Shown: positions 42,988-61,750 of the stretch, one piece after another | Numbering within the stretch: position 1 is the first letter of the stretch | Layout: the number at the start of each line of letters is the position of its first letter | From: Bacteroidales bacterium | GTDB taxonomy: Bacteria > Bacteroidota > Bacteroidia > Bacteroidales > UBA932 | Length of the DNA: 64,000 nt | Assembly (NCBI GenBank): GCA_024398105.1 | Contig: JAKSJP010000003.1 | Location: forward strand, 19,780 to 83,779 | Reading direction: 5' to 3' | The notes under the pieces: generated by a model | The model's input: only the letters and a program-made list of their open reading frames with translations | What the model was told of the DNA's origin: nothing | Database searches by the model: none | Position numbers and translations under genes: made by a program

Positions 42988-43005
42988 TCAATGGAGGGAA
43001 TAATT

Positions 43006-44589: not shown

Positions 44590-44601
44590 TTCCGGCAGAG
44601 T

Positions 44602-45504: not shown

Positions 45505-45516
45505 ACGCAGGAAGAT

Positions 45517-46797: not shown

Positions 46798-46809
46798 TAG
46801 GGACGGAAA

Positions 46810-49002
46810 ATGAAACACAAATTACTTATACTCGCTGCGGCCCTCAGCTCACTCTTCCTTGTATCCTGCAAGGAAGATGAGCCGGTCGCAAAGGAGCCTA
46901 CACTTTCTGTAGTCAAGAATGAACTTTCCATTCCAGGAAAGGGAGGCGAGGCTGTCGTTGAAGTACAGGCAGAAGGCGCATTCGAGGCTACCGTGGACAA
47001 GGACTGGCTCAATTGTTCGAAGGAAGGTTCCAAGATCGTGCTCAGCGCCGGCGAGAACCCATCTATCGAATCCCGCTACGCTTCCCTCCTCATCAAGAAC
47101 AATGAGGAGTCCATCAAGCTCAGCGTAGTCCAGCTTGGACAGAAGACTTCAGGATTCGATCCTGACGACATCAAGGCATCTTCTGACGGCGGCGAATTCA
47201 CATTCGAATACAGCTACGACACCAAGATGACCGCGACTGCCGACGCAGAATGGGTATCTCTCGACATCACTGAGGACTGCCTGACTGTCACCATCGCAGA
47301 GAACACTGTCCAGGGCACACCTGAGAATCCTGCAAGATTCGCAGAGATCAAGTGGACTCTCGGAGCAGACAACGGCGTCATCGGAATCAGACAGAGCAAT
47401 GTCTCATTCATGAAGGTAGACCCTAACTGGAACGTCGAATATCTTGGCGTCCAGGACTACGAAGGCGAAGATGTCGAGGAAATCCAGAACAACGTAACCG
47501 ATCCTACCATCTCAGGCAAGTATGCAGTCTCATTCCTTTCTAAGGCTGAAGTGACAGCCAGCGGAATGGAGATCCAGGATTATATCAGCGACGTCTTTGC
47601 ACCTGCATACATCGCGGAAGTAGAAGAGATCATCGCATTCTATGCACAGTACGGAATCACCCTCGCTTTCGAGGATCTCCTCTTCGAGGACACTGATTTC
47701 CAGATTTTCGACATCTTCACCCCTGGTGATTACTACGGTATCGCTGTCGGATTCACAGAAGACGCAGATCTTACCGGACACTACGCTTACTGCGAGTTCA
47801 CCAAGGAAGGCGGTTCAGACCCAGGTCCAGGCGATGGTGGATATTCATCATGGCTCGGAGAATGGAAAGACGAAGAAGGAAGCACTTGGACAATCACTGA
47901 GAAAGTGAAGGACAAGAGCTACACTATCAACGGTATCGAGGGTATAACTACACTTCCTATCGAGGCAGAGTATGATGCTGCCAGCGAGGCACTCGTCGTA
48001 CGTGCACAGGAAGGCCTTGGTTCATATGAAGATATCGAGAATGTAGGATACTATGGTATTGCCGAAGATGGATATTTCTACACTCCTGGAACCGAACCTT
48101 ACGCAATCTTCACAGCTAAGCTTGCATCGGATGGATCTTCTGCAAACCTTGTTGGAGAAATGATCGCTACTGAAGATGGAAATCTCAGACTCGTGAACGC
48201 AATCTACATTGGAGAAGGCGATGACGGATACTACTCACTCAGCAAGTCATACATTTCACTTCCTTCTACCATCAAGAGAGTTGGAGGAAACGGAGGCGGA
48301 GACAACCCTGGATCGGGTTCTGCGGAATATAACAAGTTCCTCGGCTCATACAGCGTAGAGCCATCTGACAGTTCTCTGGATCCTTGGACAACCACAATCA
48401 GACAGGATGTGGCTGACAAGAGCTTCAAGGCATATGATTGGCAGGGCTGGAGCGACGACTGGATGAGCCCGGCAGAGGCTGACTACAAGGACGGAGCAAT
48501 CGTATTCAAAGGCGGAACCGGCAAAAAGGCTGCTTCGAATGTCCAGATCGATGACAGTGGAGAGGCATTCGACATCTATTACATGGGACGCGCTGAGATG
48601 AACGGAAAGGTCTATGTGATTACTTCCGGAACAGGTATGTACGATGCTTGCCAGGGCAAGATAGACAACAGCGGAAACATAACCCTCACCGGACTCGACG
48701 TTGAGCTCAGTGACGGTGGTACATATCCATTCGTAGACTACAGTATCGTAGCCATGAACGCTGACAAGACATCAATCTACACCTTCAGGAATATGATGAA
48801 CTCGTTCCCTGTCACAATGACCAAGGCCGGTTCAGGTTCTTCAGTGAAGCGTATGTCTCTCTCATCAAAGAACGCTGTAAAGATCGATCCAAGCCAGGTA
48901 ATCGACATCGCACAGCTCCGAAACAGCCAGGAGAGAATCAAGATGTCAGGCAAGGCTGCGATTTCACAGCCAAGAATGATCCATATTAAAATAGCCAGAT
49001 AA
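46810..49002 (+). CDS. Large surface lipoprotein: two BACON-like domains plus two LG-x-W lipocalin-like modules
   Basis: 730 aa with lipobox FLVS|CKEDE. BACON-like segments (LSIPGKGGEAVVEVQAEG...WLNCS...LSVVQLG; SSDGGEFTFEYSY...WVSLD...GIRQ). No catalytic motif recognised. Confidence 0.6.
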   Translation: MKHKLLILAAALSSLFLVSCKEDEPVAKEPTLSVVKNELSIPGKGGEAVVEVQAEGAFEATVDKDWLNCSKEGSKIVLSAGENPSIESRYASLLIKNNEESIKLSVVQLGQKTSGFDPDDIKASSDGGEFTFEYSYDTKMTATADAEWVSLDITEDCLTVTIAENTVQGTPENPARFAEIKWTLGADNGVIGIRQSNVSFMKVDPNWNVEYLGVQDYEGEDVEEIQNNVTDPTISGKYAVSFLSKAEVTASGMEIQDYISDVFAPAYIAEVEEIIAFYAQYGITLAFEDLLFEDTDFQIFDIFTPGDYYGIAVGFTEDADLTGHYAYCEFTKEGGSDPGPGDGGYSSWLGEWKDEEGSTWTITEKVKDKSYTINGIEGITTLPIEAEYDAASEALVVRAQEGLGSYEDIENVGYYGIAEDGYFYTPGTEPYAIFTAKLASDGSSANLVGEMIATEDGNLRLVNAIYIGEGDDGYYSLSKSYISLPSTIKRVGGNGGGDNPGSGSAEYNKFLGSYSVEPSDSSLDPWTTTIRQDVADKSFKAYDWQGWSDDWMSPAEADYKDGAIVFKGGTGKKAASNVQIDDSGEAFDIYYMGRAEMNGKVYVITSGTGMYDACQGKIDNSGNITLTGLDVELSDGGTYPFVDYSIVAMNADKTSIYTFRNMMNSFPVTMTKAGSGSSVKRMSLSSKNAVKIDPSQVIDIAQLRNSQERIKMSGKAAISQPRMIHIKIAR

Positions 49003-49019
49003 CAACAAACTATTATATT

Positions 49020-52000
49020 ATGAAAAAAGGTATTATTGCAGCTCTTTTTGCTGCGGCTATCGCAGTTGTAGGTTGCTACAACGACGATGAGCTTCAGAAG
49101 AAGGTCAATGACCTCGACAAGAGAGTCACTACTCTCGAGGAGCAGGTCAAGGAACTCAATGAAAAGACAGTTCCAGGTCTTCAGGCTACTGTTGCCGCCA
49201 TCCAGGATGGTGTATTCGTATCTAAGGTATCAAAGACTGCAGAAGGTGTGACAATCACTTTCTCAGACGGTACTTCCGCTTTCATCAAGGATGGTGCAAA
49301 GGGTGACAAGGGTGATTCTCCTGTAATTGCAGTCAAGGAAATTGACGGCGTATTCTACTGGACTATCAACGGTGAAGTCGTAGAGGATGCTGAAGGCAAT
49401 CCTATCACAGTCTACGAGGCTCTTCCTGAGTTCCGTATCAACAACGGCAAGTGGGAAGTTTCATACGACGAAGGCAAGACATGGACAATCGTTGACGTAA
49501 TGGGCGAAGCAGAAGCTCTTCCTATCTCTATCCAGGACGACGCTGACACCGTTACATTCTACATCGGCGAAGAGTCTTACGTCATCCAGAAGGAGCATGC
49601 ATTCTTCATCAGCTTCAACATCTCTGACCGCAAGAACATCGGTGTTCCAGAGGGAGAGGAGTTCATGTATGAGTACACAATCAACGGTCTCCGCGAGGAT
49701 GATGAGCTTGAGGTTGACATTCTCAATGTAACTGCAGGCTGGGAGGCTAAGGTAGTATCTCTTCCTAAGGGAGAGACTCCTGGCTACATCGCTGTCAAGA
49801 ACCTTGAGAACAAGGACGGAAAGGTATTCGTATATGCCGCTAACGGAAAGGGCAAGACTGACATCAAGTCTCTCGTATTCGAGGGTGGTGTCCTTACTGC
49901 TGACATGGATGTCAAGACAGTCGGTGCAGAGGGTGGAAACCTCATCCTCACAGTTGTCACCAACATGGACTATGAGCTCTATATCCCTAAGAACCAGAAG
50001 TGGCTTACACAGGCTCCAGAGACAAAGGCTACACATACAGATGTAATCACTCTCGTTGCTGCTCCTAATGAGACCGGAGCATACCGTTCAACAGAGGTTG
50101 ACGTCATCCTCCAGAACATGGAGACCAAGGCATTCGTAATCCTCCAGGAGCAGAGTGCATCTGTAGCAACAGACATCGCTTCTCTTGCAAATGTCGAGGA
50201 AGGCACAGAGGTTACACTCTTCAATGAGGTAGTCGTAGCAGCTGCTGCAGAAGGTTTCGTAATCTCAGACGGCAAGAAGAATCTCTACATCGCTGACCAG
50301 ACAGCAGCAAAGGGTGACCTTGTTGAGATCAGCGGTACTGTCACCGAGGACGGTTTCGTTGCATCTTCAGTTGAGATCAAGGGTAACGACCATGCTCTTC
50401 CAGCAGAGACAAGATTCTACTATTTCGCTTACAGCCAGATCTATGATTGCGTATTCACTGCTGTAAACGGTATTCTTAACATCGACGGTGAGACATACTC
50501 TATCGAGATGCCTTACGGCGATGTCATCACACTTGCGACACCTTCATCAGTCGAAGGTCTTGTAGCAGGCAATGTCGTTTCTGCAAAGGGCTACATGATC
50601 GGTTACGAGGAAGGTGATGAGGCTGACGAGTATACAATGCTCGCAGCAGAGATTGCATCAGCTCCATTCACAAAGAAGGGAGAGATGACATACAATCCTG
50701 ACGGAAGCAACTCTTCTTATCCAGACGAGATCGACTGGCCAGGATTTACCGAGGGATATGCTCAGTATTCTATCTACAAGAAGGAAGCTATCGGCGAAAT
50801 GTCTGAGGCTGAATTTGCTTATAACATATCAATGCAGGCTGCTGACGACTATCAGTATGATTATCTCCATTCATACGGCGCAAGCATGGCTCCAGCTACC
50901 CTCGCACCTCTCGTTCTCTATGCTCCAGGCGAGACATGTGCTGCTAAGCTTCCATACGGCGAGTATATCGTTGTAGCTACCGGTATGGATGAATATGGTC
51001 GTCTCAGTGGCGACTATGGATTCCTTGAGATCATTAAGGAAGAGCCTGTTTCAAACGCAGCTTACGAGGATTACCTCGGAACATGGAAGATGGGCACTGA
51101 TCTTCTTACCATCTCACAGAAGGAAGCTGGAAAGACATACAACATCTCAGGTATCAAGGGTCAGAAGAATGACAACTACGGATACAACGTCGAAGCTGTT
51201 GTCGCTGAGTTCGTAAACGGTAACATCGTACTTAAGGAGCAGGCAACATCTGCTACTGCAGAGGTCGGAACAAATGGTCTCTGCAACATCTACCTCTCTG
51301 GTGTATTCGCATACTCTGGAAAGACCTACGGATATTATCCTATCAACGGTGATGAGCCTCAGGTTATTTTCTCAGGAGCACTGGTTGATGACAAGATCGT
51401 CCTTACTGCAGGTTCTTGTGAATATGGAAGCTTCACAAGCATGGGCTTCTCATGGGTGATTGCAGAAGGCACAAACGCAGGAAAGGGCAACACATTCACC
51501 GGTACTACACTTGGCAACATGGAGAAGCCAGGCGAAGCTAAGGAGGCTTATAAGAAGTGGCTTGGCAACTACACATTCGTCATCGGCGGTGAAACCTACA
51601 ACGCAACAATCCAGCAGCTTAATGCAAATACCGACATGATTGTCTCATTCGACGATGAGTATATCGAGGACTATGAAGCAGTCGCAACATGGGATGAGGC
51701 TAAGGACGTGCTTACCATCAGTGGACAGAAGTTAGGAACATGGACTCATTCTACTTATGGAACAATCACAGATACAGTATGCGGCATCATCGAATACAAC
51801 GGCAACAAGACAAGCGTAACAGGTTCATATGATATCGCTACTCTCAGCTATAATGATGGTAACATCACAGTAGATACTGCCGGTAAGGTTACCCTCTCTG
51901 TAGGTGACTTCGACATCATCGGTATGTCAATGTTCGGTGTAACTTCCGACAACAAAGTCCTCAGATATGTAGATGTAGAGGACTACCAGATGTTCCCATA

Positions 52001-52196
52001 TGAGCTTACAAAGGCAGCTGGTACAACTGCTACAAGCAGCAAGTCAGCAGGTAAGACTCCTGTAATCGCTGGTAAGGCAGTTGCAGAGAAGGCTGTAGCA
52101 CAGCCAGCTAAGCTTACATCTGCAAAGACTCAGAGCACTTTCAACAAGAAAGTATCTGTAAAGGCAGAGGTAAAGAGCGTAAGAAACATCAAGTAA
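49020..52196 (+). CDS. Very large surface lipoprotein: N-terminal coiled-coil/DUF4988-like region, BACON-like domain, two LG-x-W modules, basic C-terminal tail
   Basis: 1058 aa with lipobox AVVG|CYNDDE. Coiled coil LQKKVNDLDKRVTTLEEQVKELNEK, GAKGDKGDS, then VFYWTINGEVV. BACON-like VGAEGGNLILTVVTNMDYELYIPKNQKWL. Confidence 0.6.
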   Translation: MKKGIIAALFAAAIAVVGCYNDDELQKKVNDLDKRVTTLEEQVKELNEKTVPGLQATVAAIQDGVFVSKVSKTAEGVTITFSDGTSAFIKDGAKGDKGDSPVIAVKEIDGVFYWTINGEVVEDAEGNPITVYEALPEFRINNGKWEVSYDEGKTWTIVDVMGEAEALPISIQDDADTVTFYIGEESYVIQKEHAFFISFNISDRKNIGVPEGEEFMYEYTINGLREDDELEVDILNVTAGWEAKVVSLPKGETPGYIAVKNLENKDGKVFVYAANGKGKTDIKSLVFEGGVLTADMDVKTVGAEGGNLILTVVTNMDYELYIPKNQKWLTQAPETKATHTDVITLVAAPNETGAYRSTEVDVILQNMETKAFVILQEQSASVATDIASLANVEEGTEVTLFNEVVVAAAAEGFVISDGKKNLYIADQTAAKGDLVEISGTVTEDGFVASSVEIKGNDHALPAETRFYYFAYSQIYDCVFTAVNGILNIDGETYSIEMPYGDVITLATPSSVEGLVAGNVVSAKGYMIGYEEGDEADEYTMLAAEIASAPFTKKGEMTYNPDGSNSSYPDEIDWPGFTEGYAQYSIYKKEAIGEMSEAEFAYNISMQAADDYQYDYLHSYGASMAPATLAPLVLYAPGETCAAKLPYGEYIVVATGMDEYGRLSGDYGFLEIIKEEPVSNAAYEDYLGTWKMGTDLLTISQKEAGKTYNISGIKGQKNDNYGYNVEAVVAEFVNGNIVLKEQATSATAEVGTNGLCNIYLSGVFAYSGKTYGYYPINGDEPQVIFSGALVDDKIVLTAGSCEYGSFTSMGFSWVIAEGTNAGKGNTFTGTTLGNMEKPGEAKEAYKKWLGNYTFVIGGETYNATIQQLNANTDMIVSFDDEYIEDYEAVATWDEAKDVLTISGQKLGTWTHSTYGTITDTVCGIIEYNGNKTSVTGSYDIATLSYNDGNITVDTAGKVTLSVGDFDIIGMSMFGVTSDNKVLRYVDVEDYQMFPYELTKAAGTTATSSKSAGKTPVIAGKAVAEKAVAQPAKLTSAKTQSTFNKKVSVKAEVKSVRNIK

Positions 52197-52224
52197 CAAG
52201 GCGCTGAGACAACATAATGTAAAG

Positions 52225-52250
52225 CGGGCCAGATGATTCTGGCCCGTTTT
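52225..52250 (+). terminator. Rho-independent terminator closing the SusC-to-1058-aa gene string
   Basis: 9-bp stem cgggccaga/tctggcccg with loop tgat, followed by ttttatttattttt. Confidence 0.8.
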
Positions 52251-52278
52251 ATTTATTTTTATGCCAGAAAATCGTAAA

Positions 52279-52298
52279 TTGCAGAAATTTATCTGCAA
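52279..52298 (+). promoter_or_regulatory. Perfect 7-bp inverted repeat abutting the S8 protease start codon
   Basis: TTGCAGA-aattta-TCTGCAA at 52279-52298, followed directly by ATG at 52299. Confidence 0.35.
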
Positions 52299-54575
52299 AT
52301 GAAAAAGACCATCCTATACCTCAGCATATTAGTGACTGTATTAGCCGCTTCATGCGCCAAGAACGAGGTTGATAAAAATGATTTGACGGCATCTACGGGA
52401 GCAAAGGCACCCATAGAATCTGAAGAGATCACTCCGGAGAAGGCTGAGAAGGCAATGTTCTTCGAGGGGAAAGCCATCGTCAGATTCTCTGAAGAGATGA
52501 CTCAGGCAATCGAAAGAGGTGCTGCTACAAAGGCTACGGCATCACTTCCCGAGGAGCTGGGTCTCAGGATCATCGAGAGAGTATTCCCACACGCAGGAGA
52601 ATTCGAGGAAAGGACAAGAAGGGAAAGACTCCACAGATTCTATATCGTAGAGTTCGACAAGGCACTCTCCTACTCCAAGGCAAGCGAGCTCATCTCTCAG
52701 ATGGAGGGCGTCGAGAACGTCGAGCCTTGCCGCAAGGTAAGGATCACGGAATACAACGACCCGCTGATGAGGCTTATGTGGGAATATTCCGGCAAATACA
52801 GCATACACGCCAAGGAGGCATGGGAATATACCACAGGTGACCCTTCAGTAATTGTCTGCGTCGTAGACGAAGGCATCCAGCAGGACCATCCAGACCTCCA
52901 GTGGAACCTCAGCTCAGACAACTACAACTTCGTCAGAAGAAATACCACCATCAACGGAGGTGACCATGGTACCCATGTGGCCGGAACCATCGGAGCTGTC
53001 GGCAACAACGAGGAAGGACTGGCCGGAATAGCAGGTGGTGACTATGCGAAAGGAAAGAGAGGCATCACACTCCAGAGCGCCCAGGTATTCGACGGCAGCA
53101 GCTCCGCATACGAATTCGGAAGAGCAATCAAGTGGGGAGCAGACCATGGTGCAGTCATCAGCCAGAACAGCTGGGGCTATAACTTCGACTGGAATCAAGA
53201 CGGAAGACTCACCGGCGATGAACTTACCGCAGCCCTTGCTGCAGAAGTTCCTGAAAGCGACGCAGCTGCCATGGACTACTTCACCAAGTACGCAGGCTGC
53301 GACAATGACGGCAACCAGCTTCCTGGCTCACCTATGAAGGGAGGTATCGTTGTCTTTGCAGCAGGTAACGACGGCATCGAGAACGGAATCCCTGGAAAGT
53401 ATCCAGCAGCGGTAGCAGTAGGCGCCACCCACTCCGGTGGTTCGGTAACATCCTTCTCCAACTGGGGAGACTGGGTTGACATCTGCGCTCCTGGCCAGAG
53501 CATCACAAGCTGCGTCACAGGCAGCGAGTACGGAAACATGTCAGGAACATCCATGGCATGTCCTCACGTATCGGGAGCATGCGCGTTGCTGGTCTCTTTC
53601 TTCGGAGGAGAAGGCTTTACCAACGACATGCTGAGGGAGATCCTTCTGAACGGAGCGAATCCATCGCTGATCAACTCAGGAGACCACCCTGTAGGTCCAT
53701 ATCTTGACCTTACCGGATCCCTCCAGTACGGAATCGACAAATTCAAGAGAGAGAACAATAACGCCCCTGAGATCACGACAGACTATGACGGCGATTTCGT
53801 ATTCCGTCAGTATCAGAACATCTCTATCCCATTCAGGATCAGTGATCCTGATGGAGACAAGGTGATGGTCACTGCTGAATTCAGCGGAAAAGGAGAACTC
53901 GTCCAGGACCAGAACGATCCTGAGATCTGGAACTTCAACCTCATCGGCGAGCTTGTCAGCAACTTCAATCCTCAGACAGCGAAGATCACAGTAAGTGACT
54001 ACTACGGAGGCGAGGCAGAGTATACATTTACCTACCAGGTCCTCAGGAACAATGCCCCTAAGGCTGTCAGGAATCTCGATGACATGATCATCATCGGAAC
54101 CGGTACCCAGCAGAAGATCAGCCTGGCCGGACTTTTCACTGACGAGGACGGAGAAACACTCGAGGTAACAGCCAAGGACATAGTCGGCGCACCTGCTAAA
54201 TTCATGATCGACGGGGAAACCATGACCCTTACTCCATTTGACTACGGTTCATCGACCATCACAGTCTCTGCGACCGACGCGCTCAAGGAGAAGGCTTCAG
54301 TCAAGTTCAGGTATCTTGTAAGGTCACAGGACGTCGAGATGGACTTCTACCCTAACCCTGTCAGAGACTATCTCCACGTCCGTACAGGAATCACTGAGGA
54401 AGACACAAGGATAGTAGTCGAGAATTCAACAGGAAACGTCCTTTACGACGAGACCGTGAGATGCAGCGCTTTCGAGCCTGCGGAGATCAACATGAAGAAC
54501 TACGCACCAGGTCTCTATACACTTCGTGTAACCATGGGCGGAAAGACCTATACAAACAACATAGCCAAGCGATGA
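52299..54575 (+). CDS. S8 (subtilisin-family) serine peptidase with two Ig/cadherin-like domains and a T9SS type-A C-terminal sorting domain
   Basis: 758 aa with N-terminal signal ending LAAS|C. Catalytic triad contexts VCVVDEGI, HGTHVAGTIGA and GTSMACPHVSG. C-terminus FYPNPVRDYLHVRT...APGLYTLRVTMGGKTYTNNIAKR. Confidence 0.88.
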   Translation: MKKTILYLSILVTVLAASCAKNEVDKNDLTASTGAKAPIESEEITPEKAEKAMFFEGKAIVRFSEEMTQAIERGAATKATASLPEELGLRIIERVFPHAGEFEERTRRERLHRFYIVEFDKALSYSKASELISQMEGVENVEPCRKVRITEYNDPLMRLMWEYSGKYSIHAKEAWEYTTGDPSVIVCVVDEGIQQDHPDLQWNLSSDNYNFVRRNTTINGGDHGTHVAGTIGAVGNNEEGLAGIAGGDYAKGKRGITLQSAQVFDGSSSAYEFGRAIKWGADHGAVISQNSWGYNFDWNQDGRLTGDELTAALAAEVPESDAAAMDYFTKYAGCDNDGNQLPGSPMKGGIVVFAAGNDGIENGIPGKYPAAVAVGATHSGGSVTSFSNWGDWVDICAPGQSITSCVTGSEYGNMSGTSMACPHVSGACALLVSFFGGEGFTNDMLREILLNGANPSLINSGDHPVGPYLDLTGSLQYGIDKFKRENNNAPEITTDYDGDFVFRQYQNISIPFRISDPDGDKVMVTAEFSGKGELVQDQNDPEIWNFNLIGELVSNFNPQTAKITVSDYYGGEAEYTFTYQVLRNNAPKAVRNLDDMIIIGTGTQQKISLAGLFTDEDGETLEVTAKDIVGAPAKFMIDGETMTLTPFDYGSSTITVSATDALKEKASVKFRYLVRSQDVEMDFYPNPVRDYLHVRTGITEEDTRIVVENSTGNVLYDETVRCSAFEPAEINMKNYAPGLYTLRVTMGGKTYTNNIAKR

Positions 54576-55489
54576 GAAAGTTCAGTCTTATTACAATATT
54601 CACCATGCTCTGCATAGCGTTGCCTGCGCAGGACATGGCCTTGATTTCCAGCAGGATCATCAATGACCCTGTCAACATGGCGACTGCCGGATCAGCATCA
54701 GCCAGCTCAAGGAACATCTCGATGTCGGCATTCGGAAATGCAGCCACGATGGCCTTCTACGAGGGCAAGGGTGACATCCAGGCCTCATTCAACAGATGGG
54801 CTCCTGACGGCCAGCTTTCCACACGTCTAAGCCTCGGTGGAGGATTCCGTCTGGGAAAGGCTTTCTCGCTCTCCGCAGCTGGTGTATATGGGGCAGGTCA
54901 GGAATACCAGGCAGTTGACGACCGTGGCGTCCCTGGGAACATGGTGAAGCCTAGCGACATGATGCTCGGTCTAGGTATCGGAATTGCAGCCAGCGAACAC
55001 TTCGGACTCGGTTTCAACTTCCGCTACAGTTCAGAGATGCTCTACGAGGACACCTCCGTCCGCGCGATCATGGTAGATGCTTCGCTGATGTACCACAACA
55101 ATGGTCTCAACGTATCAGCAGGAGTACGAAGCCTCGGACCTAAGGTACATGACCAGGCAGAGACTCAGTTCAACCTTCCTTACGCAGTCAACCTTGCAGC
55201 ATATTATGACATGGAATTCGCCGAGCAGCACAGCCTCGGATTCGGAATCGACGGCAACTACTTCCTCAATGGAGGAATCAGTGCTGCTGCAGGAGTGGAG
55301 TACTCATGGAACGACACAGTGTTCGCCAGAGCCGGTTTCCACTATGGCAACTCAGGTTCGCCTCTTCCGACAAACCTCGCTCTTGGACTTGGAGCGAAGT
55401 TCATCGGAATCAGCGTCAACGTCTCATATCTTACTCTTAACGAAGCCCTTGGCAACACTCTTTGTGTCGGCCTTGGATACAGCTTCTAA
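54572..55489 (+). CDS. Outer-membrane beta-barrel, PorV/PorQ-family-like (T9SS-associated)
   Basis: The ORF runs from 54461; the plausible start is ATG 54572, overlapping the protease stop (ATGA). 305 aa with signal peptide MRKFSLITIFTMLCIALPA|Q. N-terminal pattern NMATAGSASASS...SAFGNAATMAF resembles the PorV/PorQ signature. Alternating beta-strand pattern, terminal GLGYSF. Confidence 0.55.
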   Translation: MRKFSLITIFTMLCIALPAQDMALISSRIINDPVNMATAGSASASSRNISMSAFGNAATMAFYEGKGDIQASFNRWAPDGQLSTRLSLGGGFRLGKAFSLSAAGVYGAGQEYQAVDDRGVPGNMVKPSDMMLGLGIGIAASEHFGLGFNFRYSSEMLYEDTSVRAIMVDASLMYHNNGLNVSAGVRSLGPKVHDQAETQFNLPYAVNLAAYYDMEFAEQHSLGFGIDGNYFLNGGISAAAGVEYSWNDTVFARAGFHYGNSGSPLPTNLALGLGAKFIGISVNVSYLTLNEALGNTLCVGLGYSF

Positions 55490-56836
55490 GCTGTTCCTGG
55501 ACAGGTCCATCAACCTGTGTCCTGAAACGCCTTCCCTTGTCCTGACAGACGAGAACTCATAGCCGAGCTCCTTCAAGGAGCAACGGCTGATGCAGTATTC
55601 TGCCGGGTATATCGTATAGTCCTGCCTGATCTTGTTGATTCCCAGGACAAAGACAATCTCGTCAGGATCCTCTCCCCCGCAGATATCTACGATGGATGCA
55701 ATGTCATTACGGTCCCAGATACGTCCATTGTCATACATGTTCTGAGGAGTATACCATATCATCTCCAGCATCTGCTGTGGAGATGTACACTGCTCGAAAT
55801 ATGGGATGTACTGAGGATCCATACGTGCCTGGTTGAACTGGAACTGTGACAGAGAAGCCATGGCATTGGCGACCTGAGAATCAGATGCACTGTAGAAATC
55901 CAGGCCGAAATACAGCTTGGAATCCCCGTTGAAGCTCATCGCGTTGGTAATCACTCCCTGGTTTCCGCTCTTGTCATAGCCAGTGACATGGAGCAGTACT
56001 CCAAGCTCGCGGTTGTCATAGGTATAGATCATCGTATGCAGGTTTTCAGTCCTCTTCTCATCGATCGCGACGAAACCGTCCAGCGATGGAGTGAAGATGA
56101 ATCTGGTGATGGAAGACACGATGCGGAGCTTCTCATCAACTGCAGCTACAGCCACCATGACATCGAGGTCCGGATAATTCTCATTCATGACAAGGTCGGT
56201 ACCGACTGAAGCAATCTCGGAGAAGGTCGAGCCTAAAGAGACCTCGTTGCTCATATAATAGCTGATGTATGTAGCCACCAGCTCATCGTCCATCTCAGAG
56301 AACCTGTCCCTGGTTCCAAGGAAAGTGAATGAATACCAGCCAACATCCTCGCGGCTAGGGATGACCTCCGCGACGAAATCGAACGGCCTGCTCTCGCTCA
56401 TCCTGATGTCGAAGCTTACTTTCTCAGTCTGGACGTCCAGGATCACAGGATCGGTAGTCATCTCTCCAGCTCCGTTGAGGCCGAACGCAACTATGACATA
56501 GTCAGTATCGGTCATCAGGCCGGTAAATGGCACGGTCTGGCTTCCCACCTTGAGCAGAGAGCCCCAGTTCGCGCCAAGATCGACCTTTTCACGAAGGTCT
56601 GAGACCATGGACTCAGGAGTCACCTTGTACTTCCTGTAATCAGACTTGGTATATTTCGCGATATAGAACGGTGTCGCATCTGGAACGTCAACCTTGACTT
56701 CGATGCTGGTCAGGCCGTTGTCCACGACCGACGCCCTTAAGAACATCTCCTGAGGAATCTCCAGCGGTTCCTCGCAGGCTGACACGAAAAGGCCGGCAAG
56801 CACAGCCAGCATCAACATTATGCGTGATTTCATCAT
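55424..56836 (-). CDS. Hypothetical surface lipoprotein (last gene of the five-gene operon)
   Basis: 470 aa with lipobox LFVSA|CEEPLE. No recognised domain. Its start overlaps the stop of the upstream gene (ATGA). Its 3' end overlaps the convergent barrel gene by 66 nt. Confidence 0.6.
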   Translation of the reverse strand: MMKSRIMLMLAVLAGLFVSACEEPLEIPQEMFLRASVVDNGLTSIEVKVDVPDATPFYIAKYTKSDYRKYKVTPESMVSDLREKVDLGANWGSLLKVGSQTVPFTGLMTDTDYVIVAFGLNGAGEMTTDPVILDVQTEKVSFDIRMSESRPFDFVAEVIPSREDVGWYSFTFLGTRDRFSEMDDELVATYISYYMSNEVSLGSTFSEIASVGTDLVMNENYPDLDVMVAVAAVDEKLRIVSSITRFIFTPSLDGFVAIDEKRTENLHTMIYTYDNRELGVLLHVTGYDKSGNQGVITNAMSFNGDSKLYFGLDFYSASDSQVANAMASLSQFQFNQARMDPQYIPYFEQCTSPQQMLEMIWYTPQNMYDNGRIWDRNDIASIVDICGGEDPDEIVFVLGINKIRQDYTIYPAEYCISRCSLKELGYEFSSVRTREGVSGHRLMDLSRNSLEAVSKADTKSVAKGFVKSKI

Positions 56837-58239
56837 TTCGTTTCGTATTTGAGTGTTATGCTCTGACCTACTGGAACGATTACGCTGTTGTCCACGAATT
56901 CCACGTGGTCGCGATAATAGTTCAGCTTCTCGACTGCCTGAGGACCGGAGACGGTCTGTCTGGTGACATAGACCACCACAGAAAGCTTGTTCTTGTCCAG
57001 TACCGTAGCTGGTATATCCATCGTATAGTTGAACGCATTGATACTGCGTCCAGAGGCTGAGAACTCATCTCCGGTCAACAGCTTTGTCGCATATGAACGC
57101 ACCACATTGCCATGTTCAAAGTTCTCGAGTTCAGACGCAGTGTAGAGATTTGTGTAGTCGGTCTGGGCAGCCACGACTCCGTTCTCCATCAGTGCGACAT
57201 GGACATGGTATGTGCCGGCGTCCTTGACGAAAATAGTCGGATGGACCTCTACCTTGCCTTTCGAATAGAGCACCTGCGCGCTTATCGCGGTCTGAGCCTT
57301 GTAGGATGTCTTCTCTTCCTCGCAGAAAGCCTTTATGATCTCATAGAAGGTCGGAGAAGCGACGCTGAACGCGAATCCACGCTCATCGAGCGTCAAAGTA
57401 GGCTTGCCTGTCACCGAGAAGCGCTTCTCATAGCGTGATGACTCACTGAAGCGGAGACGGGAGACAGAGTTCGCATCATAGAAACAGATGCAGTTCAGCC
57501 TGCCTGGTTCCTCTGTGCTGAACCTTGCGACGTCATATGCAAGATTAGGGCAGAAACCGCACCAGTCACCGGTGAAGCGGTAACCGAGGACTCCCTTGTA
57601 GAAATCCCTGGTCCAGTCAACCTCGACATGAGCCGCCTGTATGACAGATACGGAAAGAGTCTTTCCGTCAGCTGTCGCAAAGGCGAGATGGCCTGAACGC
57701 GAACTTGTCTTGGTGTTGGCCTTGACCCCGAAGGCGATCTCTTCCTCGTTTCCTTCACCCTTGAAGGATGTGGAAGACGGGAGTGTAACCCAATCTACGT
57801 CGGCTGTCACGGTATAGTCCACATTGGACTTGACGCGCACCACAAAGCCACCTTCCTCCGGGACATAATACATTTCGTTGTCCGTGCTGATGATATCCAC
57901 GCTAGGCTGGGTGAAGCTGTACATGATCGTATTTGCGCCGTCGACTATATAGAAGGCGCCTGTACGGCCCTTCATCGAAGAGTTCTCATCGAAATGGACA
58001 GTGATCACAGCTTCGCCAGGAAGACCTGCAGAAGGCGTGACATACATCCAGTCATTGTCGTTCACGACGCTCCATCTCTCGGTCGCGGTGAATCTGTATG
58101 TCATGGAAGATTTCTCCGGGCCTATGGTCTCAGATGCGCCGGGCTTGTCCTCCGGATGGATATTTGGCTGGCACGCGACGAAAGCCGATGTCAGCAAGGT
58201 CACCATCGCAAGAATTGAAATTAGTTTGCGGATTCTCAT
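56833..58239 (-). CDS. Lipoprotein with two BACON-like domains and an Omp28-related thioredoxin-fold domain carrying CxxC
   Basis: The ORF-track start 58245 is TTG; the first ATG is 58239 (MRIRKLISILAMVTLLTSAFVA|C). BACON-like segments (RWSVVNDNDWMYVTPSAGLPGEAVITV; VDWVTLPSS...SVSVIQ). Then GYRFTGDWCGFCPNLA, similar to the GTWCGxCP motif of Omp28-related proteins as I recall them. Confidence 0.6.
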   Translation of the reverse strand: MRIRKLISILAMVTLLTSAFVACQPNIHPEDKPGASETIGPEKSSMTYRFTATERWSVVNDNDWMYVTPSAGLPGEAVITVHFDENSSMKGRTGAFYIVDGANTIMYSFTQPSVDIISTDNEMYYVPEEGGFVVRVKSNVDYTVTADVDWVTLPSSTSFKGEGNEEEIAFGVKANTKTSSRSGHLAFATADGKTLSVSVIQAAHVEVDWTRDFYKGVLGYRFTGDWCGFCPNLAYDVARFSTEEPGRLNCICFYDANSVSRLRFSESSRYEKRFSVTGKPTLTLDERGFAFSVASPTFYEIIKAFCEEEKTSYKAQTAISAQVLYSKGKVEVHPTIFVKDAGTYHVHVALMENGVVAAQTDYTNLYTASELENFEHGNVVRSYATKLLTGDEFSASGRSINAFNYTMDIPATVLDKNKLSVVVYVTRQTVSGPQAVEKLNYYRDHVEFVDNSVIVPVGQSITLKYETK

Positions 58240-58245
58240 AATCAA

Positions 58246-59823
58246 CTAGAATGAGGTAGTTAGCGTGAAGTTCGCACCTGTATATGCAGGGATGAGCCTG
58301 CAGACTCCTCCGGCACACTGATAGCCCTCGCGGAACCTTCCGAAATTGAGAGCCGCGCGTATCTTGGAGCGTGAATAGCTGAGGCCTCCGTTGAAATAGT
58401 GGATACGTGTGAAACCATAGTTCCACATATCGCTGACGGAGAAGCTCCAGCCTGGGGAGATAGTGTACTCCACGGTGCCCGCGCACCAGTTGCCGTCGCC
58501 CTGACCGCTCCAGAGATGCTGATACTCCGCACGTACTGCGTGCTTGTTGTTGATCTTGTAGGTAACGTCTCCCACGATGGTATGGCTTCTGCGGAACTCA
58601 TACGAAGGATGGGCTCCGACCCTGTTGTTGTAGGTCTGCCATGTATAGAGCACGACCGTCTTGACATGCCTTCCCCACCATCTTTCCGCGTCAAGGGTCA
58701 AGTCTCGGAAATAGAGCTCATCAGCCTTGATCTCAGGCATAGGAGAAGGACCGTAGAATGTCGAGAAGTTGGTATGCACCCTCATTCCACGGTTTCCTCC
58801 GAGCTTCGAGCCCCTTGCGAAGAAATAATAGACATCTGCCTGTCCTCCGACCTCGCCGTCCATCTGACTCTGATAAGGAGTGAGCGAAGCGAGGGAATAA
58901 GTATGCTGCTGGGTCAAGGCCGGGATATAGTTCAGAGCCGTGAACATGGTACCCTGATTGTAGTCCGACTGGAATCCGGCGTTCAGGATACGTCTGAAAG
59001 TCAGGTTCGCGCCGAATCCGCCGCTGGTGTATGTACCTTCGGCCAGGATGGCACGGGACTTACCTGTCTCATAGTTGTTATATACGCTTACGTCCGAATC
59101 CCTCAGGACATATTCTCCCTTGAGCGTCAGGCCGTTCCAGTCGAACAGGAGACGGGCCGACCCTCCGTTCACGTCCGGGCTGATCAAGCCTTCCATCCAC
59201 TCGCTTTCCAATGCCTGATGCTTGTTGATGAAGCTGCCCTCGAGCGAGAGATTGAAGAGGTCCCCGTGACCGGCAAGTTCCATAAGATTGACACTGAAGT
59301 CCGCGCCGATTATCCTCGAGCCGTAATTATACTCCTTGAACGCCTTCGGGAAACCAACCATGGCCGAGACTGAGATCTTGCCGTCCCAGTTGTAGCCGAG
59401 ATTCACTCCCTCGAGCGCCGTATTGAGGCCCAGGGACCTTTCCTCATAGGCCCTGAAAAGCAAACCGCTGCCGTACTGGCCATAGAAATCACCGACAGTG
59501 GCGGTGAATCCCTTGTCGCGGAATCGAAGATATCTGTTCGACAGAGAGAAGCCCTTGAGCTGCTCGGGATATCCAAGGAGCTGAGGGAAGTAGCCTTCCA
59601 TCTGCAGTCCCGCCTCGAACTTGCCAAGGCCGCAGTCGATCTTGAGGTAGTTGTTTGTACCGAAACCGCCATCCGGACGGACGCTGCCTCCAGCAGGGTC
59701 TTCCACATAGTAGATCGAGTTGGACTCGAGTCCACCTGTCACATAACCCTTCTCCCAGAAACTCTGAGCGGAAGCGCTGAACGCTCCCGCTGACAACAAT
59801 ATGGTAAATATGATTTTTCTCAT
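58246..59823 (-). CDS. Large plug-less outer-membrane beta-barrel (DUF6029-like)
   Basis: 525 aa with signal peptide ...AFSASA|Q. Alternating amphipathic strands rich in Y/G/N, C-terminal FTLTTSF. No TonB box or plug motif seen. The DUF6029 assignment is from memory of the N-terminal pattern SFWEKGYVTGGLESNSIYY. Confidence 0.55.
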   Translation of the reverse strand: MRKIIFTILLSAGAFSASAQSFWEKGYVTGGLESNSIYYVEDPAGGSVRPDGGFGTNNYLKIDCGLGKFEAGLQMEGYFPQLLGYPEQLKGFSLSNRYLRFRDKGFTATVGDFYGQYGSGLLFRAYEERSLGLNTALEGVNLGYNWDGKISVSAMVGFPKAFKEYNYGSRIIGADFSVNLMELAGHGDLFNLSLEGSFINKHQALESEWMEGLISPDVNGGSARLLFDWNGLTLKGEYVLRDSDVSVYNNYETGKSRAILAEGTYTSGGFGANLTFRRILNAGFQSDYNQGTMFTALNYIPALTQQHTYSLASLTPYQSQMDGEVGGQADVYYFFARGSKLGGNRGMRVHTNFSTFYGPSPMPEIKADELYFRDLTLDAERWWGRHVKTVVLYTWQTYNNRVGAHPSYEFRRSHTIVGDVTYKINNKHAVRAEYQHLWSGQGDGNWCAGTVEYTISPGWSFSVSDMWNYGFTRIHYFNGGLSYSRSKIRAALNFGRFREGYQCAGGVCRLIPAYTGANFTLTTSF

Positions 59824-59833
59824 GGATACGGTC

Positions 59834-60316
59834 CTACAGCTTCTTCAATGTCTCATAGACCGCCTGCTCGTCTCCAGGAGTATATCCTATATGGGTATAT
59901 ACGACCTTGCCGGTCTTATCCAGGATGAACATGGTAGGATTGCTCTGGACATTCATGGATCTCTTGAAATCGCCATTCTTGTCAAGAGCGATGACAAACG
60001 GCCAACCTCTGCCTTTCGCCAGAGGCAATGCCTTGCTGCTGTTCCTGGAGTCATCCGTAGATACAGCGACGACCTCGAAGTCGAACTCGTCCATCCAGTC
60101 GAAATAGCAGTCACTTATCGCTCCCATCTCCTGAAGGCATGGCTTGCAGGAGGTATCCCAGAACGACAGGACTACAGGCTTGCCCTTAGGAAGGATGCTG
60201 GCAACGCTGACGGTCTCGCCCTTGGCGTTGACCACATTGACAGTAGTCACCACCTTCTGGGCACTCGCCCCTACCGCGACCAACATCGCAGCCATCAAAA
60301 GAATGAATCTCTTCAT
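59834..60316 (-). CDS. TlpA-family periplasmic thiol:disulfide oxidoreductase (thioredoxin fold)
   Basis: 160 aa with cleavable signal ...GASA|Q. Active site FWDTSCKPCLQEM (CxxC). Confidence 0.8.
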   Translation of the reverse strand: MKRFILLMAAMLVAVGASAQKVVTTVNVVNAKGETVSVASILPKGKPVVLSFWDTSCKPCLQEMGAISDCYFDWMDEFDFEVVAVSTDDSRNSSKALPLAKGRGWPFVIALDKNGDFKRSMNVQSNPTMFILDKTGKVVYTHIGYTPGDEQAVYETLKKL

Positions 60317-60318
60317 AT

Positions 60319-61560
60319 CTACTTGAGGATGAAGCTTGTAGTATTGAAGCTATCGTCAATTCCGTATCCGAAAGCGCATGAGTTGTCAGGTGCGATGTAG
60401 CACATCTTGGTCTCTGCGAAGACGTCAAGCACATCTGCGCCAAGCATCTCGGCTACGTCGACAGCGCTCTTCTCGCCTGCCTTCCATACATAGGAATGTA
60501 CCGGCTTAGGATCCCACATGCTCTGCTTGGTAGAGCCTACTACAGTTCCGTCATCAGAGATGCTTCCTGGCTCAAAGTCGCCATTCTCGCAGATCACGAG
60601 CTCCTTTGTCTTGAGGTTGAAGCGTGCTGCCACCTCTGCTACGTCGAACTCCTCTGAGTACTCCTGGACTGTAAGAGCGACCCACTCTCCATTGGCGCTG
60701 ATGCCGCATGGATGGAACATCATGTATGGAGCGTTCACAGGTGTCTCAGGGTCCCACTCGAAAGGATGGAAGAATGCCTTGCAGACAGGATCTACAACAT
60801 ATGATCCATCTGCCTGCCTGTTCCAGATCACGAGAGGCCAGCTGGCTGTGTCGTCAATCACGAAGCCGCAGAGGACGCTTGCATCGGCAGACATCCATCT
60901 TACCTCTGCACCGTCTACATTGAAACCGATAGACTCTGAGCTAGGGACCGGAAGAGTGATTCTGTCAGACTCAGATGTGAAAGGAGCCTTCCAGATACAT
61001 GGGAGCGGGCTGTATCCGTTATAGTAGAAACCAGCGATGAGGTTGCCCTCCTCGTTGATCGAATATGCAGCTGATCCATCCTCCACTGCTACAGTATATG
61101 TATAGATGCTGCCATCCCAGTCCTCATAGGACTGCTCCACGACGTCTGGGTTATAGTAAAGGAACTTGCCGGCAGTGCCCTTGCCCATGAAAGCATAGTT
61201 GTTGAAAGAATCATCTCCGGCATTTGCGTCACGACCCTGTCCTACGATAGTTCCGGCCAGATTCATACCGAAAGAATCACCCAGGATATTGGCGATCTCA
61301 ACTACATCCTTATTCTCGACATCCCATACTGCAGGGTTGCCGCTGATGAAGTTGGAGCCTGCCGCGAACTTTCCGTCAGGAGTGCCGGTAAGCACCATCA
61401 TTTCGACTGATGAGCTTGAAGGTGAAAGGGTGAGTGTAGTGAATGTGCCGTCGTATACTACCTCTGGTTCCTGGTCATCACCGCCTTCCGGACCTGGTTT
61501 GTTACAACTGATGGACATGATGGCCAGAGCCGCCATCGCAAGCAAAGAAATCTTCTTCAT
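60319..61560 (-). CDS. Surface lipoprotein with 6-7 beta-propeller-like repeats (first gene of operon)
   Basis: 413 aa with lipobox MSIS|CNKPGPEGGDDQEPE. Recurring blade-like motif: NLAGTIVG, INEEGNLIAG, MSADASVLCG, ISANGEWVA, ISDDGTVVG, IAPDNSCAFG. Confidence 0.55.
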   Translation of the reverse strand: MKKISLLAMAALAIMSISCNKPGPEGGDDQEPEVVYDGTFTTLTLSPSSSSVEMMVLTGTPDGKFAAGSNFISGNPAVWDVENKDVVEIANILGDSFGMNLAGTIVGQGRDANAGDDSFNNYAFMGKGTAGKFLYYNPDVVEQSYEDWDGSIYTYTVAVEDGSAAYSINEEGNLIAGFYYNGYSPLPCIWKAPFTSESDRITLPVPSSESIGFNVDGAEVRWMSADASVLCGFVIDDTASWPLVIWNRQADGSYVVDPVCKAFFHPFEWDPETPVNAPYMMFHPCGISANGEWVALTVQEYSEEFDVAEVAARFNLKTKELVICENGDFEPGSISDDGTVVGSTKQSMWDPKPVHSYVWKAGEKSAVDVAEMLGADVLDVFAETKMCYIAPDNSCAFGYGIDDSFNTTSFILK

Positions 61561-61604
61561 AAGTGCTGTGTGATATAAAATTGTTATTGTTCGTCAAACA
61601 AGAA

Positions 61605-61628
61605 AAGCCTCAGATTTCTCTGAGGCTT
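61605..61628 (-). terminator. Rho-independent terminator after tRNA-Asp (minus strand)
   Basis: 10-bp stem aagcctcaga/tctgaggctt with loop tttc. On the minus strand it is followed by ttttcttgttt. Confidence 0.75.
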
Positions 61629-61631
61629 CTG

Positions 61632-61705
61632 CGGTGCGGAAGGGACTCGAACCCTCGACCTCCGGCGTGACAGGCCGGCATTCTAACCAGCTGAACTACC
61701 GCACC
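61632..61705 (-). tRNA. tRNA-Asp (anticodon GUC), CCA not encoded
   Basis: The reverse complement reads GGTGCGGTAGTTCAGCTGGTTAGAATGCCGGCCTGTCACGCCGGAGGTCGAGGGTTCGAGTCCCTTCCGCACCG. Anticodon stem CCGGC/GCCGG with loop CTGTCAC. T arm GAGGG-TTCGAGT-CCCTT. Confidence 0.9.
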
Positions 61706-61742: not shown

Positions 61743-61750
61743 CAAATATA
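61743..61750 (-). promoter_or_regulatory. Candidate -7 box (TATATTTG on minus strand) for tRNA-Asp
   Basis: Plus-strand caaatata is the reverse complement of TATATTTG, 38 nt upstream of the tRNA 5' end. Same octamer as upstream of tRNA-Gly. Confidence 0.4.

Follow-up and report, generated by a model that had tools for sequence, protein, structure and literature searches.

Among the foods of gut Bacteroidales are disulfide-bonded proteins such as mucins, antibodies and digestive enzymes, and to our knowledge it is not known how they open such substrates outside the cell. What, then, is a large outer-membrane barrel doing in one operon with two thioredoxin-fold proteins, one secreted and one lipid-anchored? 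The question is raised by a 64,000-nucleotide stretch of DNA (the window; contig JAKSJP010000003.1, positions 19,780 to 83,779, assembly GCA_024398105.1) from a Bacteroidales bacterium of the UBA932 lineage, in which five open reading frames (ORFs, here g1 to g5), all on the minus strand, span 55424-61560 by ORF calls on the window. We tentatively posit, at slightly less than even confidence, that this operon is the outer-membrane branch of an envelope thiol-reducing pathway, in which a relay from DsbD through TlpA to a thioredoxin lipoprotein and barrel serves a surface protein-foraging locus. Within this model the DsbD and TlpA reductive steps are best supported, the barrel as a platform is less certain, and the protein-foraging role is least certain.

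A recurrent operon and its electron supply

Read in the direction of transcription, the five genes are as follows, with lengths in amino acids (aa).

60319-61560, minus strand: g1, a 413-aa lipoprotein with lipobox SISC and then NKPGPEGGDDQEPE (ORF)
59834-60316, minus strand: g2, a secreted TlpA-family thiol-disulfide reductase of 160 aa (ORF, Pfam, NCBIfam)
58246-59823, minus strand: g3, a DUF6029 outer-membrane beta-barrel of 525 aa with about 24 strands (PF19494, AlphaFold2)
56833-58245, minus strand: g4, a lipoprotein of 470 aa counted from TTG, with two BACON/Ig-like domains, a thioredoxin fold and a C-terminal beta-sandwich (Pfam, AlphaFold2)
55424-56836, minus strand: g5, a 470-aa lipoprotein with lipobox VSAC and then EEPLEIPQE, with an FN3-like N-terminal module and a C-terminal domain (ORF)

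NCBI names the products, from g1 to g5, hypothetical protein, TlpA family protein disulfide reductase, DUF6029 family protein, Omp28-related outer membrane protein and hypothetical protein. The junctions are TAG-AT-ATG between g1 and g2 (2 nucleotides, nt), TAG-GACCGTATCC-ATG between g2 and g3 (10 nt), TAG-TTG between g3 and g4 (0 nt, or 6 nt if the ATG is counted) and ATGA between g4 and g5 (an overlap of 4 nt). The tightly packed unit described in an initial annotation of this DNA, with its positions and its junctions of 2, 10, 0/6 and -4 nt, was thus recovered on rereading the sequence, and the motifs listed there (FWDTSCKPC, GDWCGFCP, CEEPLE and CNKPGPEGGDDQEPE) are all present. Lipoboxes are found in g1, g4 and g5, and the tails of g1 and g5 (CEEPLE) are acidic.

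Related loci were collected by a scan of one genome per species that returned 580 DUF6029 relatives; locus counts given here are from the best 80, at 37-47% barrel identity, which come from Alistipes, Bacteroides, Phocaeicola, Cryptobacteroides, Coprenecus, Odoribacter, Marinifilaceae and Muribaculaceae. In 75 of the 80 loci the gene directly upstream of DUF6029 is a same-strand homologue of g2 (median gap 6 nt), two of the five loci that lack it being contig edges. The barrel has Omp28-like neighbours in 65 loci by phmmer and in 72 by clustering, mostly just downstream (median gap 27.5 nt). Since this trio recurs and g1 and g5 are confined to a sub-clade, the core of the module is TlpA-DUF6029-Omp28-like, and since the arrangement recurs across species it is beyond chance. 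Relatives whose barrels are 62%, 76% and about 94% identical keep all five genes, g1 and g5 without a change of position. The proposal that the five genes form a unit therefore holds for co-conservation, strongest for TlpA and DUF6029 and complete in close relatives, and fails for a conserved core of five, which is the trio only. The window is one copy, and an ordinary member, of a widespread gut-Bacteroidales module.

The reductive relay is the best-supported reading because DsbD is linked to the module in relatives. DsbD is an established hub that carries electrons from cytoplasmic thioredoxin to periplasmic thioredoxin-fold reductases (PMC3322552), and in 14 of the 80 loci the operon itself includes a gene for full-length DsbD, with its alpha, membrane and thioredoxin domains. 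Two architectures occur: the seven loci nearest to the window have DsbD, BACON/Omp28-like, TlpA and DUF6029, and seven Alistipes loci have DsbD, a lipoprotein of about 950 aa, TlpA, DUF6029 and Omp28-like. Stand-alone DsbD-alpha-like genes lie upstream of the module (L001:7563-8015; loci are cited by number), downstream of the barrel (L081:9595-10146) and between the g4 and g5 homologues of the relative at 76% barrel identity (L084:8119-8601), and the minimal L081 locus consists of TlpA, the barrel and the DsbD-alpha-like protein only. From this gene linkage, g2 would be reduced by DsbD. The stand-alone proteins are small and carry a C-x4-C or C-x5-C hairpin, two of the three with a C-terminal membrane helix; no such gene is present in the window, where g4 and g5 overlap.

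Functionally, g2 has a type-I signal peptide and no lipobox, and its active site reads as follows.

60137-60160, minus strand: active site WDTSCKPC of g2 (motif read from sequence)

Pfam matches to AhpC-TSA (E=4.5e-19), Redoxin (E=4.3e-17) and Thioredoxin_8, all over cut-off, agree with the TlpA-type thioredoxin fold assigned initially, and a secreted thioredoxin fold with a CxPC active site is what characterises the TlpA/ResA/DsbE reductases. Because its NCBIfam scores fall under every equivalog cut-off (ResA, 64.9 bits versus 170; DsbE, 45.1 versus 123; TlpA, 39.9 versus 230; StoA, 53 versus 210), g2 is no orthologue of ResA, StoA, DsbE or TlpA. The TlpA homologues beside DUF6029 score 1e-37 to 1e-60 against g2 and share CKPC in 62 of 68 cases, and the barrel-linked TlpA is therefore a dedicated subfamily.

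The DUF6029 barrel and the thioredoxin lipoproteins

Structurally, g3 matches PF19494 from end to end (E=1e-158, 529.9 bits versus a cut-off of 27, residues 1-525 covering model positions 1-538), and an AlphaFold2 model built with 90 homologues has a predicted local distance difference test (pLDDT) score of 90.4, a predicted template-modelling score (pTM) of 0.84 and 24 transmembrane strands by count. Its signal peptide (ending ...SASA/QS), antiparallel barrel, periplasmic turns of mostly 2-4 residues and C-terminus (...TLTTSF, the last residue being the aromatic F) are those of an outer-membrane beta-barrel. The barrel is plug-less, because its first strand starts at residue 27, only 7 residues past the predicted signal-peptide cleavage site; Pfam gave no Plug match and g3 has no TonB box, which places it outside the TonB-dependent transporters and SusC, and the large barrel without a plug that had been read from the sequence is thus borne out. 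Its best fold matches in the PDB are 24-strand usher pores, with template-modelling (TM) scores of only 0.45-0.50, followed by TonB-dependent receptors at 0.39-0.44 and the 18-strand AlgE at 0.28-0.32, so that g3 has no close solved relative.

These comparisons bear on whether DUF6029 could be a Wzi/AlgE-like secretion barrel for polysaccharide export. The literature found on DUF6029 is one paper, a survey of polysaccharide export proteins in which a passing HHpred remark notes the similarity of plug-less Wzi-like barrels to this family (PMC9603273), and one source labels a homologue 'Alginate...'. We consider this candidate highly improbable, given about 24 strands rather than 18, an AlgE match below that of the usher pores, and recurrent neighbours that, where annotatable, are redox proteins, lipoproteins, peptidases and SusCD, with no polysaccharide export or synthesis gene among them.

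Conservation within g3 is concentrated in loops. Three predicted external loops (L3, the second half of L7, and L12) outscore the strands, which is unusual for an outer-membrane protein, and the variable loops L4, L5, L6, L8 and L9 stand at 0.19-0.36.

59416-59484, minus strand: loop L3 of g3, YGQYGSGLLFRAYEERSLGLNTA, mean conservation 0.82, the most conserved segment of g3
58285-58332, minus strand: loop L12 of g3, REGYQCAGGVCRLIPA, a beta-hairpin of mean conservation 0.79, above most strands

L3 is probably a lumen-facing or partner-binding site. L12 holds the sole invariant cysteines of the DUF6029 family, C503 and C508 (C-x4-C, across 90 homologues), in a motif, C[SA]GGVCR, that is found in 80 of 82 barrels; in the model its hairpin strands run from 500 to 504 and from 507 to 511.

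As a separate observation, the hairpin YQCAGGVCRLIP has the C-x4-C spacing and trailing proline of Bacteroidales DsbD-alpha redox hairpins (the DsbD N-terminal domains of L042, L003 and L001; hairpins compared, QACNVGTCLSP and WMACTSTSCTPP), a likeness in a short motif that may be a chance match.

The initial annotation had also proposed that small disulfide compounds or peptides enter through the barrel and are then reduced by TlpA in the periplasm. The absence of a plug, conserved loops that probably line the lumen and the periplasmic location of TlpA are compatible with such a channel, but a second import route would be redundant where, as is common, a SusCD importer adjoins the module, the catalytic-type CxxC of the lipoproteins themselves would be left unexplained, and no inner-membrane transporter recurs in the neighbourhoods. 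The proposal gained no support here, and we regard it as very unlikely.

Which protein, then, would g2 serve? The second thioredoxin fold of the operon is that of g4, a lipoprotein (lipobox FVAC, Cys25) whose probable start is the ATG at 58239, 6 nt past the TTG, this being the start in the 94%-identical orthologue P0121. Pfam finds BACON in two stretches (48.3 bits, over the gathering score) and Omp28 (PF11551; E=1e-20, 74.7 bits versus a cut-off of 34.9), while the score against the NCBIfam Omp28 lipoprotein subfamily, 36.5 bits, falls short of the cut-off of 150. In the AlphaFold2 model (pLDDT 79), Ig-like sandwiches at 46-113 and 125-203 are followed by a thioredoxin fold (strand 219-225, CGFC at 229-232, helix 233-245, and P282 just ahead of strand 283-286) and a C-terminal sandwich at 319-458.

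57547-57570, minus strand: GDWCGFCP of g4 (Cys229, Cys232), at the N-terminus of helix 1 (motif, model)
57397-57408, minus strand: cis-proline motif GKPT of g4 (motif)

The BACON and CxxC thioredoxin-fold lipoprotein foreseen from the letters alone is in agreement with both Pfam and the model. Conservation of the lipoprotein CxxC, a check that had been asked of it, is strict: YRFTGDWCGxCP is invariant among 15 g4 orthologues, the two cysteines and the cis-proline are among just five invariant columns in 47 diverse Omp28-like neighbours of DUF6029, and CxxC is present in 94 of 98 Omp28-like proteins near DUF6029. Because CxxC and cis-proline are invariant, the motif is of catalytic type and no relic, and the model and alignment together place a conserved CxxC at the N-terminus of helix 1 and a conserved cis-proline loop before strand 3, as in redox-active thioredoxin folds.

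Evolutionarily, a profile of the 47 family members searched against PDB sequences matched HBP35 (5Y1A) at 3e-19 across both thioredoxin and sandwich domains and Omp28 (2R2C) at 3e-12, with ordinary thioredoxins matched more weakly, which by sequence assigns g4 to the HBP35/Omp28 family. A single-sequence PDB search with g4 put human PDIA4 on top. A PDB fold search with full-length g4, a multi-domain query unsuited to it, returned Ig-domain proteins alone and is uninformative for the thioredoxin part; likewise, in a word-indexed homologue search full-length g4 was swamped by BACON proteins, and its C-terminal domain alone gave 11 orthologues. Bacteroides and its relatives carry three Omp28-like paralogue types in fixed order (TGTWCxYCPxM, TSVGCxNCPxL and TGxWCxxCPxG), of which g4 is the first, with BACON domains where an Ig-like domain is usual at the N-terminus. 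L023, L050, L055, L061, L065 and L074 (e.g., L055:11634-14504) encode single proteins of 850-1000 aa that join three Omp28-like thioredoxin domains, every one with a CxxCP, in the order of the three separate Bacteroides genes; this fusion in six loci suggests that the three paralogues act together. Several fusion loci contain two DUF6029 paralogues, one beside TlpA and the other beside the fused protein.

Among 119 Omp28-like proteins, 107 have a lipobox, and 89 of these 107 have at least two acidic residues just past the lipid-anchored cysteine, a tail that we take to resemble the Bacteroidota surface-export signal.

HBP35 of P. gingivalis, a surface protein, has thioredoxin activity in vitro (insulin reduction) that is lost when two cysteines are mutated; it also binds hemin, for which the cysteines are not required, and is needed for growth at low hemin (PMC2907840). 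These properties would fit a module for heme or iron capture, in which HBP35-like lipoproteins bind hemin at the surface, DUF6029 is a TonB-independent entry channel and TlpA keeps binders or cargo reduced. The family profile does cover both the thioredoxin and the sandwich domain of HBP35, and in P. intermedia a locus that combines PorV/PorQ with an S8 peptidase and a BACON protein, similar by description only, rises 8- to 11-fold on iron depletion (PMC10434189). However, hemin binding by HBP35 is independent of CxxC, whereas CxxC is the invariant feature here, no Hmu/Hus-type heme genes recur near the module, and Redoxin-family and DUF4988 genes of B. thetaiotaomicron (orthology to the module unverified) go down, not up, at low iron. 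We consider heme capture improbable.

The same conservation weighs on a reading, close to one of those in the initial annotation, in which redox chemistry is for maturation only: the barrel and lipoproteins would form an LptD/LptE-like plug-and-barrel complex whose task, for instance binding or export, is not redox chemistry, and TlpA and DsbD would just maintain or correct cysteines during assembly. That TlpA and the barrel are the tightest and most universal pair, that the L081 locus reduces to these two and a DsbD-alpha-like protein, and that a plug-less barrel of about 24 strands would need closing, all point this way. Yet an invariant WCxxCP with cis-proline in three paralogue types over hundreds of millions of years suggests catalysis beyond structure, and the relative HBP35 is catalytically active, so that maturation alone seems to us decidedly unlikely.

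Accessory genes, upstream region and the neighbouring locus

Neither g1 nor g5 had a match in Pfam, NCBIfam or PDB sequences. Profile self-alignment gives g1 internal repeats at a probability of 70-90%, and its homologue in L083 has a weak DUF5122 propeller match (E=0.016); from sequence, g1 appears to be repeat-containing and is possibly a beta-propeller, so that for the propeller called initially these repeats are a hint at most. Relatives of g5 are just 37 among 1.84 billion representatives, and its N-terminal 170 aa are homologous to the lipoproteins of about 950 aa that lie upstream of TlpA in 26 loci (hhalign probability 95%). Homologues of g1 at 42-44% identity and of g5 at 56-63% occupy the same positions in L083 and L084; in L088 and L089 g1-like genes adjoin g5-like genes. 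Remoter g5 homologues come after BACON-Omp28 (L089) or directly after DsbD (L087), and such remoter genes adjoin BACON-Omp28, g1-like or DsbD genes on other contigs. In the 80 loci, direct sequence search found no close homologue of either protein, and profiles gave a few remote g5-like lipoproteins and one g1-like lipoprotein. On this distribution we take g1 and g5 as accessory lipoproteins of a sub-clade.

Elsewhere, the partner lipoproteins are the family of about 950 aa (26 loci), one of about 750 aa (25 loci) and DUF4988 proteins (22 loci), all with acidic N-termini; for the two former families, Pfam on 29 members and PDB profile searches gave weak FN3/Ig hints alone. A 512-aa 'TlpA fusion' in L057 (L057:8439-9977) was rejected as an ORF-calling artefact, a DDE transposase of an insertion sequence (IS) element being inserted just upstream of TlpA. 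In ten Cryptobacteroides-type loci (L014, L015, L017, L019, L030, L031, L049, L054, L068 and L080) a MauE/DoxX-family membrane protein of 400 aa is encoded upstream of TlpA, a few genes away and between housekeeping genes (thymidylate kinase, FolP), a placement that may be coincidental synteny or may mark a further redox partner.

Upstream of the operon, three features were located.

61603-61630, minus strand: terminator-like hairpin after tRNA-Asp, 42 nt ahead of the g1 ATG
61631-61705, minus strand: tRNA-Asp, 5' of g1
61743-61750, minus strand: exact Bacteroidetes -7 box TAnnTTTG (TATATTTG), the sole exact box in the region, 5' of tRNA-Asp and 182 nt ahead of the g1 ATG

The position of this box 5' of tRNA-Asp is conserved in the nearest relative, L086, and the box drives tRNA-Asp, not the operon, which may be expressed by read-through past the tRNA-Asp terminator; that no exact box follows the terminator had been noted before and was found again. 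A sigma-70 promoter scan, ill-suited to Bacteroidetes, was at background (8 sites versus 6.1 expected). For riboswitches or RNA leaders, Rfam gave tRNAs alone in the window and, on four related loci, nothing besides a group II intron in L039. This intron (L039:7959-8055), with a 611-aa ORF, splits a SusD gene that lies upstream of the module; the locus is from a metagenome-assembled genome (MAG) of Bacteroides xylanisolvens.

Is the adjacent nutrient-acquisition locus part of the same system? It abuts the operon on the other strand.

39655-55489, plus strand: convergent neighbour locus with SusC, SusD, a zinc metallohydrolase, DUF4302/DUF4987, BACON, DUF4988, an S8 protease and PorV/PorQ (Pfam, NCBIfam)

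Its SusC/SusD part (39655-52196, plus strand) includes a 730-aa BACON protein, a 1058-aa DUF4988 lipoprotein and a zinc metallohydrolase lipoprotein of TIGR04549, 'substrate import-associated'. The candidate role of DUF4988 neighbours as hyaluronan lyases was rejected, only their N-terminal ~300 residues being common to the BT3328 hyaluronan lyase family (125 bits versus a cut-off of 1100), as are only the N-terminal ~160 residues of the 1058-aa protein; because this match is N-terminal only, we draw no glycosaminoglycan link. The remainder (52299-55489, plus strand) encodes an S8 protease with a type IX secretion system (T9SS) sorting domain and a PorV/PorQ-family barrel. Their sequence suggests translational coupling, with the S8 stop codon directly next to the likely start of the PorV-like gene (MRKFSL..., ~54575). 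The PorV-like 3' end overlaps the g5 3' end by 66 nt on the opposite strand. A PorV-like shuttle beside a single T9SS cargo is also seen in L016.

In the window the SusCD pair lies on the opposite strand, convergent with the operon, and outside its transcription unit. In L062 (Phocaeicola) and L060 (B. ovatus) the operon itself runs SusD, Mx1 metallohydrolase, DUF4302, a lipoprotein of about 950 aa, TlpA, DUF6029, Omp28-like and a BACON/M43 peptidase, with a SusD that scores 4e-104 against that of the window, and in L016 (a Marinifilaceae MAG) it runs BACON protein, SusC, SusD, lipoprotein, TlpA, DUF6029, Omp28-like, PorV-like, S8 with T9SS domain, SusC and SusD, with gaps of 3-60 nt. The families joined to the module in these three loci, by orthologues of the window genes, are those that abut the window operon, and gene content thus argues that the neighbour locus is probably linked to the operon in function. 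The earlier proposal that the operon feeds the adjacent protease and SusCD locus gains support from this synteny.

The proposed relay and known systems

The analysis shows that the genes are linked, that the redox motifs are conserved, that g3 has a barrel fold and that g4 is homologous to HBP35; from these results we infer who reduces whom, surface exposure, a physical complex, the substrate and an electron path across the outer membrane, as follows. DsbD, whose gene lies elsewhere in this genome and inside the operon in relatives, would take electrons of cytoplasmic thioredoxin across the inner membrane and reduce the secreted g2. The clients of g2 would be g4, with its PDI-like WCGFCP, and/or the C-x4-C hairpin of g3, which would act as a docking or insertion platform that keeps the lipoproteins on the outer membrane. 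With the aid of g1 and g5 as binding lipoproteins, g4 would reduce or reshuffle the disulfides of extracellular (glyco)proteins, which the neighbouring secreted S8 protease and zinc metallohydrolase would then cut and whose pieces SusCD would import.

Several points weigh against this relay. No DsbD or CcdA is encoded within the 64-kb window, as the initial annotation had stated, and we know of no mechanism by which electrons would cross the outer membrane were the lipoproteins surface-exposed. The cysteine pair of g3 may be no more than a structural disulfide, confidence in the g4 model is low at the loop of the active site (pLDDT <50 at residues 227-230), and the g4 tail, CQPNIHPED, is a weak match to the surface-export signal. 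The frequent partner lipoproteins (~750-aa, ~950-aa and DUF4988) are without recognisable function. The foraging link is recurrent, not universal, with peptidase genes at most 10 kb away in 9 of the 80 loci and SusC in 13. Finally, the relay is built on sequence and structure models.

The modest peptidase count also bears on the explanation that such a chain protects against oxidative stress, with DsbD, TlpA and thioredoxin lipoproteins keeping surface and outer-membrane proteins (barrel cysteines included) reduced when anaerobes meet oxygen or peroxide at the mucosa, nutrient gain being incidental. The core module is indeed often without a peptidase nearby, DsbD-fed envelope reductases and peroxiredoxins are known (PMC3322552), the HBP35 authors proposed upkeep of cell-surface redox status (PMC2907840), and a 2026 preprint ties Muribaculaceae surface thioredoxin-domain proteins to high-fat-diet conditions (PMC13404670). 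However, the HBP35 authors saw no oxidative-stress phenotype (PMC2907840), the recurrent genes of the 80 neighbourhoods include no stress gene such as a peroxidase or a methionine sulfoxide reductase, and a dedicated 24-strand barrel, the many binding-type lipoproteins and the placement in SusCD operons would go unexplained. We therefore think this explanation unlikely.

A bolder version of the relay would make the DUF6029 barrel the outer-membrane counterpart of DsbD, passing TlpA electrons to surface thioredoxin lipoproteins via the C-x4-C hairpin or via a thioredoxin domain lodged in the 24-strand lumen. We hold this to be distinctly unlikely; if true, the exterior of a Gram-negative cell would be equipped with a disulfide reductase that is recharged by enzymes and able to unfold disulfide-rich host or dietary proteins.

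We found no published account of a TlpA-DUF6029-Omp28-like system, and searches for a Bacteroides TlpA, Omp28 or surface thioredoxin-lipoprotein system gave nothing direct, in line with the earlier statement that no characterised system has this composition; the parts all come from named families, and it is the arrangement for which we found no description. The module is thus a testable candidate for opening disulfide-bonded substrates, in which DsbD/TlpA electrons would reach thioredoxin-like lipoproteins at a barrel, inside protein-foraging loci. If true, this would be a first function for DUF6029 and for the large Omp28/HBP35 family, and the module poses the question of whether reducing power can cross an outer membrane. 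Genetics should be feasible, because orthologous loci exist in the cultured Bacteroides ovatus, B. xylanisolvens, Phocaeicola coprocola, Alistipes timonensis and A. putredinis.

How does the module compare with known systems? The DsbD/CcdA-fed TlpA, ResA, CcmG/DsbE and StoA are, like g2, secreted thioredoxin folds with CxPC whose models match g2, and relatives of the g2 operon likewise encode DsbD, but no cytochrome c, copper-centre or spore targets lie near g2, whose fixed partner is an outer-membrane barrel. The usher pores PapC and FimD, the best PDB fold matches, are in the same size class as g3 with about 24 strands; in contrast to them (sequence identity 9-11%), g3 has no usher plug, N- or C-terminal domain, and chaperone and pilin genes are absent at its locus. 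By analogy, we liken g3 to LptD/LptE, SusC/SusD and Neisseria Slam with its substrates, in each of which a large barrel is encoded beside lipoproteins that probably dock or pass through it, and, as with LptD, the barrel cysteines of g3 may need envelope redox enzymes; none has sequence or close fold kinship to g3, and SusC has a TonB plug that g3 lacks.

For g4, HBP35 (5Y1A) and Omp28 (2R2C) share the thioredoxin fold with WCG[YF]CP followed by a beta-sandwich and are located at the outer membrane or surface, whereas HBP35 is a type IX secretion cargo anchored via its C-terminal domain and lacks the BACON domains of the lipoprotein g4. DsbC, kept reduced by DsbD, resembles g4 in the PDI-like CG[FY]C, whose reduced state in g4 would presumably be DsbD-maintained, but g4 has no DsbC-type dimerisation domain and is lipid-anchored at the outer membrane. 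Paraprevotella clara 00502, compared by description only, is another gut Bacteroidales surface protein annotated 'Omp28-related', which recruits trypsin, a disulfide-rich host protein, for degradation (PMC9477747); unlike g4, it is described as a WD40 domain, five Ig-like domains and a T9SS sorting domain, with a thioredoxin domain not reported. What sets the module apart from DsbD-fed envelope reductive pathways is its obligatory outer-membrane barrel and its lipid-anchored, probably surface-exposed, thioredoxin-fold end members.

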